A program made the translations under genes and the position numbers. The notes beneath the pieces were generated by a model. That model was not told where the DNA came from, searched no databases, and saw only the letters and a program-made list of their open reading frames with translations. From assembly GCA_010093815.1 (NCBI GenBank), contig ML996568.1: 64,000 nt of DNA. One strand, 5' to 3'. Source of the DNA: Pseudovirgaria hyperparasitica (taxonomy: Eukaryota). This document shows, piece after piece, positions 50,888 to 55,263 of the stretch. How positions within the stretch are numbered: the stretch's first letter is position 1; each line of letters begins with the position of its first letter.

Positions 50888-51841
50888 GGTTGCTCATATG
50901 TAGTGACCTGTCCTGAACGCCGTGGCGACGTCGCTGTTGCACGAGATGGGGATTCTCCTGAGGAGCGCGCAGACTCAAACGTTCTAGTCTTGTTCAAATC
51001 AACGAAAGCTACAATACACTCAATAGGAACAGCATCGCTTTATATACATCGCAGACGGCCGCTGCACGCTACGCCCGGCCTAGACAAAGTAATACGTGGT
51101 AGAATAGAGCCACCGGTTGGGCTCGTCCAAGTTTTCGTCTATACTTGCATCATCTCTGCCTCCAACAGTCCTACAATCTATGGCGCCGGCAAGCACACGC
51201 TCCGGGTCGTGCTCGCGTTCGCGCTCACGCTAGGTATTGTAGCTACCAAGCCGTTGTCGTAAGGCGTCCCTGTGACCCTTTCCTTAGTGACCCCTAAGCA
51301 ACGGTGCAGTGCGTCTGTGCGAAGCGGCCTCCTGATTTCACATGTGCAGTCTTTGTGTTGTTCATCAGTCGAAGAGATAGCAATGACCTGTGGTCTCGGC
51401 AGTGTATTATAGAGGAGCGTAGTCGAGTCTACTGTTGCTGACTCGATGCATCGCCAACATGCACATTTCACAGATCAACAGGGGACGCTCCACCGCATCG
51501 GGTCTAGTTTGAGAATATCTGAGCACGGATATCTCCGGCCTAACCCCACGCCCAATAACAGGTATTGACCCCACTGCACCCGTGAAAGGACAGTCCACTC
51601 TGCGTCATTTCATGCGCGACCACCGTATTCAGTAGATAGGCGGCAGCATCTATGTGAACAGGTGTAAGCATTTATCGTGTTTCCTACTTCAATCATGCTC
51701 TCTCGATGATATCCTTCTCTGTCATTCTGTTCACACTCAGCATCGCTGTTCTCATACGCTTCGCCGGTAGGCATCAGCACCGTTGACGTAGCGAATCTGC
51801 TAACACTTAGTATAGCTCAACTATACACACAAACCCACATT

Positions 51842-52773
51842 ATGCGTCGTGGCCCTCGTTTCGTGAATCTACAAAATAACGGGCCTCGCAATTTACAGAC
51901 CGCACCATCCACCAGCGACGACTACGCGTCCGGTCCGTCTCCAAGCGACGTCCGCCTCGTCCGTGCATACCTCAAGCACCTGTCACTCCCCACCGAACTC
52001 GTACTCTCCATCCTTGACGAAGCAGACTATCGCCCCCTCCTTATAGCTCACCGAAACGAGAAAGTGGCACTATACTCCCACGTTTCCCGTAGCGGTAACG
52101 AAGGCGCAGCTCTGTACCTGACGTCTCCTGTCATCCCGGTTGGGCTCAAGAGAGCTGGAATCACACATGTTCCCAAGAAGATAACGTACCGGATATCAAG
52201 TCATGACCAGGGCTACTGCAGCGAGCCTGGTCTTGCAGGAACGTATAATGGGCATACCTGGTTCGAAGCGACTATTCTTCGCCCTCGGTCTGACACTGAT
52301 ACGGGTCCCGGGAGTGTTGGAATAAACTACCAACCGCTGGAAAGACAATTTCCCCGCCAGCCCTTGCCATCTTGGAAAAATCCCGGGGATGCAGCAGAAA
52401 GTATCCAGTCCTATGGTTGGGATTTCATTCTCGATGAGGATGGCAATGCCATATCTTGGCGCGTACAAAACAATTTGAGTGCCACTAGGTCGGATGTGGA
52501 ACACGAGATTACATGGGAGAAAGGGCAAGAAGTCGAGATTATTGACCCAAGTACTAATGACTTTAACGGAAGAGGGAATGGCCAGGGCTTCTTTGACATC
52601 CTAAGAGAAGGTGATCGAATTGCCTTGTGGGCTCGTGCTTTGGTACGTTGCTTTTAATCCCTCTCTTCCCTCATCCACGCTCTATAGCACAAGCTGACAA
52701 TCTGCAGTATCCTGGCTGGATCAATCACATCAAGGAAGCCAGCATCGAGATTACATATGACGAGCATCAGTGA
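51842..52773 (+). CDS. Conserved-looking fungal hypothetical protein (~288 aa) with F-box-like LPxEL start and SHDQG/WFEA/WARA-YPGW motifs; exons 51842-52642 and 52708-52773
   Basis: LSLPTELVLSILDEADY; ISSHDQGY; TWFEA; LREGDRIALWARAL|YPGWINHI across intron GTACGT...GCTGAC...CAG. Confidence 0.75.
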
Positions 52774-52870
52774 AATTCTCAAAACCAGCCTACATATTCC
52801 GCTTTGGCAATTGAATGGTGAGATTCAGTAGTCTCCTACGATTGGGCAGACGAGCATATACAACTGTAAA

Positions 52871-53331
52871 GCTCTGTGGGAATATGGTAGATTAGACGTG
52901 ACAAAGTTGCTTGACGGTCTTAACTCGTCTAGCTACGCTCTATATATATATAAGCCTAGCACTCGATAAGATTTGAGTAATGGGGATGACATACTAGAAA
53001 TCCCGATGTGGGATTTCATCCCTATTATTTAGATCTTTTTAAGCGCTAGGCTTATATACATAGAGTGTAGCTAGACTAGATAGGACCGTTAATCAACTTT
53101 GCCACGTCTAAATCTACCAACAGAGCATCTATGACACACCCACGTGATGTCGACACACGTGCTTTGTGGGAACTTCGGTAGATTTGATGTGGTAAAGTTG
53201 ATTGACGTATCTAAGTAGTCTAAATATCAACTATATATACAAGCCTAGTGCTGTGGTCATATAGTTGGTATATAGACTAGATAGATACGCCAATCAACTT
53301 TGTCACGTCAAATCGACCGAAGTTCCCACAG
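52871..53331. repeat. Compound inverted-repeat (double foldback) element: two tandem related hairpins, possible MITE relic or hairpin-RNA locus
   Basis: Hairpin 1 arms ~52885-52963 and ~53042-53119; hairpin 2 arms 53165-53236 and 53259-53330. All four arms share a GGTAGATT(T/A)GA(C/T)GTG..AAAGTTG-like core. Confidence 0.9.
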
Positions 53332-55263
53332 CCTTCATCCTTGATCGACCCGCAGCAGGAATATCGGATGGTAATTAATCACCCCAATTCGAACACCACA
53401 TTCCCCTCGCGCCACAGTTGTACGGCAGGAGAACTTGTGCGTCACCTGTGTGACTGGTCTAGCAGATTATTTTCGACTCAAAAAACAATATCCGCTTACA
53501 TGGTTGTACAAACATTGGTCCATCTTAGGTACCGTGATGAATATGAAAGATCTGCCCATTTCTCAACACCCGGTACCACTGACGTCTTCTTGGACGTCTC
53601 GTCATCAGGGCGTTGCATTGTCGTCGGTATAAGATGCAGCGGCCGCTATAAAACCTACAATAATTGAGTATGAGTATCACGGGATTATCAGAGTAGTAGG
53701 CCAGAGCAGCGTGCTCATTTGAAAACAAGCAAGTAATTTGGCATACATAATCACACGTCTTGCGTTATATACAGCTGATTTTATCGTGTCAACGACGGGG
53801 GGTGGGGGTAGAGCGGGGAAGGGGAGTAGTAAAGGTATGTATTGGGGGCATGATGGGATAGAATGCAAAACTTGTAGCGATGTATATATATATATATATA
53901 TGAGACCAAACTCTGAGAGCATATCGTCTTTGGTCGACTTTGAGCATTGATATGTGTGCAGTGGTGGGTGGTGCGCTGGTATATATATATACATATATTG
54001 CAGTGAGAATCGTGAGATGTGTGGGTTAGTTAGTCAGGCAGGCAGGCAGATATGACGTCTACTTAATAGAGTATATCAATATTCTACTGAGTTTTGTACG
54101 AGGTTTGTATTAGAGGTAGTAGGTAAGGGGGTTAGCGTAATTACTGGTAGTTCTGTTCTCTAGGCTTCAAGTCCTGTGGCGCGTGTGTGTGTGGGATGAC
54201 AGGAGTATATATATATATATATATACCACCTTTTTATTTGTGTTCGAGTTTTGTGTGTTTTGGTGCGGTTTGTGGCATCGTCAGGTGGGGAGGAGGTGGG
54301 AAGATGAGGTGAGGTGAGGTGAGAGACGTGTGATGAGGGTGGGTTGCGTGCTTTGGAAACCTCGGACTTGCTGCTGGGATCGTGGCTGTTGTTGTTGCTA
54401 ATTATATTGTAATATAATACGATGGCATGCTCTCGTGGGTACAGCTGCTGCTTTTTCTAATGCTGTCTGTAGGTCATCCTCGTCCTCGTTCATCTTTGCG
54501 TCTATCTCTGCGGACTGTTCTTCAACCTTTGCGACAGCGCCCTCCCCGCCCAGTCCCCAAGACATAAAACCAGGAACGTGGTATATCTGGCTGGCACTGG
54601 CGACGTGCTTGCGACCAGGAGCGGCGAGTGCTGCATCGGATGCTCCACCGATGAACAATAAGTCGGGAGTATCCTGACAGATACGGCAGTGTCGAATATT
54701 GCTCATCTGAGAGAACTCGACTGACTGTGTCTGGTATCCATCACTTCGCAACGGTTTCCGATTTTTGCTACGCGCTGGTTGGTGGAGAAGCCAGAGGTGT
54801 GGTGGTCGAGAGCTCGAGCATTGGGAAGCCAAACGAGCCTATTTTTGGAAGCGTGGTGAGTGTGTACTCCTGGAAGGCCTTACTTGTTAATGCTCTGACT
54901 GTATGGTAGGATGGAGTATTTTCTCTGGTAATTGGACATATTGGGTTGTGCATGGAGATCTGCGCTCTGAGGTGTGAGTAGTCTAGGAGATGATCTGCTT
55001 GAGAGGAAGCTTTGACTGACTTTGGTGTAGGGCGTTATTGACGGCGTTTCTCCAGAATGGCTCTGGTGTCGCATGGTCGGAGGAGTTTGGATGGTGATAT
55101 AGACCTGGAAATTGTGGGTACTATGGCCGTAGGGCTCTAGGTCTCGGTGTAAGTTTCCCAGATGTACATAACCATGTCGAACATTTTTCGCTTTGTATCG
55201 AGGTCTTAGTCTCTTTATTCGTGTCTAGATAGATCGTATGTGTTGCTGGGTGATATCCCATGA

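Follow-up and report, generated by a model that had tools for sequence, protein, structure and literature searches.

Introduction

Solo LTRs of Ty3/Gypsy retrotransposons ordinarily stand singly and are bounded by a direct target-site duplication (TSD). Transposon sequence can also be arranged as inverted repeats. In the budding yeast Naumovozyma castellii, many palindromic siRNA loci were reportedly traced by Drinnenberg in 2009 to Ty fragments. Palindromic loci supply 74.1% of the siRNA reads of this yeast, as stated in excerpts of bioRxiv 10.1101/2019.12.12.873604. Mu killer of maize is an inverted transposon duplication whose read-through transcription from an adjacent host gene yields a hairpin, and PMC3440606 describes ~4 kb of DNA-transposon transposase and TIR sequence with proven silencing of MuDR. 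Regarding the origin of such structures, polymerase template switching is presented, in portions of two sources, as a one-step source of hairpins and inverted repeats (bioRxiv 10.1101/2023.04.19.537475; PMC13100816).

The locus described here lies in a filamentous ascomycete, Pseudovirgaria hyperparasitica, and consists of four LTR relics that form two head-to-head palindromes, unlike ordinary solo LTRs. In common with Ty3/Gypsy LTRs, its family has TG..CA ends, a purine tract (PPT), a PBS-like site, a TSD and, in the linked element, the domain order PR-RT-RH-IN; by these features we class it as a Gypsy LTR relic and not as a MITE. It resembles Mu killer in its inverted transposon sequence and in read-through from a host gene, which here comes from one sample with the strand inferred. 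In contrast to Mu killer, it has two short stems of retrotransposon LTR, 68-78% identical to the LTR of the open-frame family member, and is known from sequence and contigs. The N. castellii loci, in the excerpts cited, are likewise endogenous fungal inverted repeats with hairpin transcripts; they belong to a budding yeast with a non-canonical Dicer and have demonstrated siRNAs, whereas the present locus most likely sits in the UTR of a coding gene and is represented by contigs only. Hairpins and miRNAs that are ascribed to template switching in the portions of bioRxiv 10.1101/2023.04.19.537475 and PMC13100816 are also one-step inverted repeats expressed through a host gene, but the arms here are 70-120 nt long and the substrate is a solo LTR. 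Among the titles and opening lines of abstracts searched, we found no solo LTRs arranged head-to-head as hairpins in the 3' UTR of a fungal gene, and the passages of PMC7175516 likewise contain no such solo-LTR hairpin case.

Results

Two long hairpins made of four homologous arms

The window is the whole 64,000-nt stretch of DNA that was analysed (C4:868001-932000 of the 35.4-Mb genome G000). The element at 52871..53331 consists of four homologous arms in the orientation -,+,-,+, which bears out the homology proposed in the preliminary description. Its parts are as follows.

52871..52874, plus strand: 4-nt flank of arm A1, with its inverted repeat at 53123-53126
52875..53006, minus strand: arm A1, near-complete LTR of subfamily I, antisense in the host RNA
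53007..53122, plus strand: arm A2, LTR of subfamily I, head-to-head with A1
53127..53160, no strand assigned: spacer of unique sequence, a weak palindrome containing a short, imperfect tandem repeat, no genome match elsewhere
53165..53256, minus strand: arm A3, the last 92 nt (3' end) of an LTR of subfamily II, with the arm's extra 22 nt being the hairpin 2 loop
53259..53330, plus strand: arm A4, the last 72 nt (3' end) of an LTR of subfamily II, facing A3 head-to-head
53331..53334, plus strand: GCCT, a near-direct repeat of GCTT at 53161-53164 (3 of 4 match)

The two arms of hairpin 2 (53165-53236 and 53259-53330) are 72 nt each with a gap of 22 nt and are 88% complementary (63/72 identical), exactly as counted before. 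Hairpin 1 is a single stem that occupies 52871-53126, with 108 predicted pairs on the plus strand and a 5-nt apex. The stem had been recognised earlier, but its arms are longer than the ~79 nt then given, and the supposed self-complementary loop is the remainder of the stem. Arm A2 has lost 9 nt near its 5' end and 7 nt in its 3' end.

The foldback is far beyond chance. When both strands were folded, the plus strand reached -263.3 kcal/mol (z -28.8) and the minus strand -243.6 kcal/mol (z -22.5), and on neither strand did any of 100 shuffles fold equally well or better. Two local hairpins and one nested four-arm structure had been offered as alternatives. The nested structure was rejected as less stable: when forced through its outer 8 pairs, the fold was 5.2 kcal/mol worse and still contained both local hairpins, and arms paired across hairpins carry 12-15 non-transition mismatches against 4-7 within hairpins. 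As for coding potential, the earlier statement that there is no meaningful open reading frame stands for frames of at least 80 aa inside the element, but the first 50 nt of a 128-aa stop-to-stop frame, starting at 53281, do fall within it. In a search of the element against Rfam, the 6 matches at E<=5 were all well under the gathering score, the best being MIR860 with 41 of 89 bits. Similarly, the absence of a clear TSD holds around the whole unit but not for hairpin 2 alone, which is flanked by GCTT and GCCT. These two 4-mers probably represent the decayed TSD of a solo LTR that was turned into hairpin 2, a weak match of 3/4 bases.

The arms are relics of a resident Ty3/Gypsy LTR

A search of the organism's own genome with the element gave at least 42 matches at E<=10, spread over many contigs, from which 38 segments at 33 loci were extracted, four of them being the arms themselves; all copy counts are lower bounds. 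Aligned together, the copies define an LTR unit of ~132 nt that begins with TG, ends with CA and has a short inverted repeat at its termini. The 3' copies have a purine tract immediately before them, and immediately after the 5' copies comes TCT(G/A)GTAGC, a motif called PBS-like by position, with no priming tRNA matched. Of 13 insertions tested, 10 have a 4-bp TSD and none has one of 5 bp. The 3' LTR end is kept in A1, A3 and A4 and the 5' end in A2. By this homology each arm is identified as an LTR relic, left by the ~132-nt repeat of a Ty3/Gypsy family resident in the genome, and the element reads LTR(-) LTR(+) spacer LTR(-) LTR(+).

The family assignment comes from contig C36, on which a gag-like frame of 448 aa and a pol frame of 1451 aa lie between two LTR copies spaced 9.1 kb apart. 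Pfam matches in the pol frame are protease at 84-170, RVT_1 at 335-495, RNase H at 567-693 and integrase at 795-966. The order PR-RT-RH-IN is that of Ty3/Gypsy pol, and the C36 element is placed there because of it. This copy (L031, G000:C36:47681-56884) is full-length with both frames open and LTRs that are 99% identical; its flanks do not form a TSD, and no chromodomain is present among the Pfam matches.

These results bear on the proposal that the element belongs to a new MITE or foldback family. The terminal inverted repeats of hairpin 2 and its 3-of-4 direct flank are what such a DNA transposon would have. However, the terminal repeat belongs to the end of the LTR itself, all homologues are retroelement LTRs, the dispersed unit is a single Gypsy-order LTR, and the palindrome occurs at only 1 of the 33 LTR-bearing loci found, with no second copy of the 166-nt palindrome among them (a lower bound). 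We give a MITE or foldback DNA transposon almost no credence. Of the 33 loci, only this one has LTRs in both orientations, and none of the 32 others has a foldback pair. A self-comparison of 265,799 bases in 43 partly overlapping sequences likewise revealed no other LTR hairpin; a candidate on C23 (L068) was dismissed as AT-rich noise (z +0.88), and the other 6 self-matches outside the element, one of them a duplicate view, are palindromes of 47-91 nt, none of which overlaps an LTR copy.

The richness of the arms in TAG and CTA, once tentatively attributed to RIP, mostly has another source. The LTR of the open-frame C36 copy is at least as rich in TpA (TpA/ApT 1.40, against 1.0-1.45 in the arms), and its GC content of 0.36 is close to the 0.37-0.40 of the arms, while strongly decayed copies go down to 0.16-0.30. 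Judged by composition, the arms inherited their TA richness from the LTR.

Several other features of the family were observed. Across the 33 loci there are 0 tRNA genes, which gives no sign of tRNA-gene targeting. Two copies, at L033:7439-7502 (C26) and L036:988-1051 (C55), have only the 3' 61 nt of the LTR in common with a different upstream part, and probably belong to a related family with a common U5 end. Five pairs of LTRs with matching TSDs lie 14-68 kb apart (L053/L022, L057/L009, L060/L015, L062/L025 and L064/L034), a spacing that suggests nested insertions within old elements.

Hairpins 1 and 2 derive from two different LTR subfamilies

The preliminary description had read the unit as a duplicated hairpin, and its grouping of the four arms was fixed before any tree was made. 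In a tree of the four arms and 30 other copies (4 short or strongly decayed segments of the 38 were left out), A1 and A2 fall in a clade with 97/86 support together with 5 of the 30 other copies (subfamily I), and A3 and A4 in a clade with 97/88 support together with 1 of the 30 (subfamily II). A single clade of all four arms is rejected (p-AU 0.000126, with one further, identical copy left out of the comparison). On this phylogeny hairpins 1 and 2 are not copies of each other, and the reading as a duplicated hairpin is not supported.

How the partners within each hairpin arose is less clear-cut. A1 and A2 differ at 21/114 positions (18%), and the closest copy to A1 is A2; A3 and A4 differ at 9/72 (12.5%) and are mutually closest. 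The terminal ACA and 4 flank bases are common to A1 and A2 in inverted rather than direct order, and no TSD was found at the apex of hairpin 1. Since insertion at the same site would leave a direct repeat, the inverted flank favours, without proving, a local inverted duplication within each hairpin of two neighbouring solo LTRs, whose longer arms A1 and A3 stand in tandem. The GCTT/GCCT bounds of hairpin 2 are what one would see had an inverted copy of the 3' part of a solo LTR taken the place of its 5' part. A test of equal age for the two hairpins gave no rejection (21/114 versus 9/72, p 0.31).

The alternative is an insertion hotspot, in which integration or recombination took place four separate times, twice for each subfamily and in opposed orientation, and the products were later trimmed by deletion. 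A1 and A2 have no private substitution in common, and A2 is nearer to the unlinked fragment L005 (13/88) than to A1; A3 and A4 do not form a clade in the best tree, although such a clade is not rejected (p-AU 0.14). Two opposed insertions therefore remain a candidate. In addition, on C9 (L007:1501-1873, G000:C9:656965-657337) two tandem LTRs of different subfamilies have CATG before, between and after them, an arrangement best explained by two insertions at exactly one site, so LTR stacking does occur in this Gypsy family. The hotspot is nevertheless improbable to us: it predicts a direct TSD where A1 and A2 have inverted flanks and none at the apex, and both pairs are matched by subfamily, one of them to a subfamily found in only 1 of the 30 other copies.

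One of the C9 LTRs also carries an extra segment of ~100 nt that was found nowhere else and whose 3' junction bases are common to arm A3. Of 5 copies whose LTR 5' end was folded as DNA, 4 gave a weak hairpin (-3.4 to -5.8 kcal/mol), and this predicted mini-hairpin could aid foldback.

Both hairpins most likely lie in the 3' UTR of a host gene

The element starts 97 nt past the stop codon of a gene on the plus strand, whose spliced frame gives the C-terminus of an identical database protein, P0001, labelled an F-box-containing hypothetical protein of Pseudovirgaria hyperparasitica. Pfam gave no match on the host protein, and the search for orthologues yielded 2 other proteins, at 33-34% identity. 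The gene is organised as follows.

51767..51815, plus strand: intron 1 (GT..AG), skipped in the X3 and X4 contigs and retained in X1 and X2
51842..52642, plus strand: principal coding part, for an F-box-like hypothetical protein whose annotated form P0001 (317 aa) begins further upstream
52643..52707, plus strand: intron 2 (GT..AG), skipped in X3 and X4
52708..52773, plus strand: last coding exon, with its TGA stop at 52771-52773
52774..53798, plus strand: inferred 3' UTR with both hairpins, from X3 record 17; strand from intron orientation, 53798 being the limit of the contig

X1 and X2 are DNA runs, in which both introns are retained. X3 and X4 are from one sample of one study and of unrecorded kind, so that their RNA origin is read from the spliced joints alone; their contigs carry no strand, end or expression-level information. 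Record 17 of X3 is a spliced contig of 2051 nt that covers 51634-53798 with 0 differences and crosses both hairpins unbroken. In X4 the same region is found in two overlapping pieces, with the contig break at 53008-53036. Because one spliced contig spans the host gene and both hairpins, the hairpins most likely lie in the 3' UTR of the host mRNA, which answers the earlier question of whether the UTR of the 51842 gene reaches the element. Beyond it, 53799-54129 has little or no cover in X3 and X4, but this stretch holds skipped repeats. An apparent C>G variant at 53051 was discarded, the row being from a contig of another LTR copy. A check for an empty site found S2 identical to the window across 2051 nt, and of 62 pattern matches to the host locus in metagenome contigs none was confirmed.

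When the whole 1025-nt UTR was folded, both stems persisted, with partner-arm pairing at 101/130 and 64/72 positions. Such stems could act in cis, lowering or gating the host mRNA through Dicer cleavage, decay or nuclear retention. Inverted Alu pairs in animal UTRs have a comparable effect, and here the short distance to the stop codon, the stability of the stems in the full UTR and the presence of RNAi genes all fit. However, the spliced X3 contig runs through both stems intact, and the arms have indels and the divergence of relics; we hold a cis-acting function, too, to be improbable.

A second LTR relic near a gene was seen at L005:1487-1583 (G000:C2:941833-941929), where a subfamily I fragment ends ~20 nt before an ATG and is contained in a 10-kb X3 contig. 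The frame downstream is presumably the start of a polyketide synthase, and the relic probably lies in its 5' UTR.

Small-RNA potential of the stems

Filamentous ascomycetes usually have two Dicers. The present genome has three Piwi matches, three strong Dicer_dimer matches and one weak fourth with a stop (C2, C28, C16 and C7), so the stems could be diced, and Dicer would probably cut some of the hairpin RNA. That the spliced contig of the 51842 gene crosses the element also helps the earlier suggestion of a small-RNA precursor. One form of this idea is a domesticated silencer similar to Mu killer, in which read-through dsRNA would be diced into anti-Gypsy siRNAs and the two hairpins would record the invasions of two subfamilies. 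The silencer agrees with the presence of foldbacks from both subfamilies within a single UTR when 0 of 32 other loci have one, and with the state of the remaining members found in the two subfamilies, which are solo, partial or AT-rich.

Comparison of the element's 21-mers with the 3' LTR of C36 gave one exact match out of 444 and four with one mismatch. The exact match is the following.

52967..52987, plus strand: the only 21-mer exact to the C36 LTR, antisense, starting with T, and nearly on the unbroken 22-bp helix 52968-52989

Fungal Argonaute prefers a 5' U, and the partner arm of the site has C>T changes that give G-U pairs. Against this, an exact run of 21 is expected by chance at 2-4% per arm, and the unlinked copy L063 also has one.

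The sense strand folds better than its complement (-263 versus -244), and its mismatches are G-U rather than A-C by 13:5 (one-sided p 0.048, two-sided 0.096). Split by direction on the plus strand, the excess is mostly C>T (9:2, p 0.065) and less A>G (4:3). The G-U excess is therefore a weak sign of selection, as C>T on the plus strand would also be given by sense-strand deamination or one-strand RIP. In addition, one X3 contig of 9033 nt matches the C36 element at its loose ends, with a C36-like contig also in X4, so the Gypsy family is not fully silent in that sample. Taken with the single exact 21-mer, this makes the silencer unlikely in our view, if still a serious candidate.

Discussion

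Among TE-derived transcribed hairpins, this foldback is a rearrangement of ordinary parts, real and unusual. We lean slightly towards reading it as a by-product of template switching in a host 3' UTR, with incidental dsRNA, that is tolerated rather than maintained as a silencer. This reading fits the arms, which have drifted like unselected relics: their divergence from each other (18% and 12.5%) compares with 15-22% to unlinked relatives, and hairpin 1 has indels of 7, 9, 2 and 1 nt. Against it stands the coincidence of two foldbacks in one transcribed 460-nt spot, when the other 32 LTR loci have none. This shared spot is not easily accounted for by neutrality, but a single complex event would account for it without selection.

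The by-product reading implies the following series of steps. Two solo LTRs of two older subfamilies would have stood in tandem ~40 nt apart behind the host gene, as the pair on C9 does elsewhere. Each LTR may then have been copied back onto itself by polymerase template switching, helped perhaps by the terminal inverted repeat and the 5' mini-hairpin; for the 52871..53331 element we infer such switching. In hairpin 1, copying would have taken in the entire LTR plus 4 nt of flank. In hairpin 2, the 5' part of the LTR would have been replaced, with the return at the terminal repeat and the TSD left behind. As equal age of the hairpins is not rejected, a single multi-switch event could have produced both. 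The arrangement, now most likely within the host 3' UTR, is predicted to fold into dsRNA stems of ~108 and ~74 pairs.

A bolder version of the silencer would make the locus an RNAi memory, an anti-retrotransposon hairpin-RNA locus built in a 3' UTR from successive LTR subfamilies, which would act on solo LTRs too short for RIP and whose 21-mer at 52967-52987 could still hit the open-frame Gypsy copy. We find this distinctly unlikely.

If the element is neutral, it is a clear case of solo LTRs turning into long transcribed hairpins in one step, and such hairpins are raw material for TE-derived small-RNA genes. If siRNAs are made from it, the locus would stand as Mu killer's counterpart in a fungus and bear on how RNA silencing of a retrotransposon can start from a single-copy, Pol II-transcribed locus.
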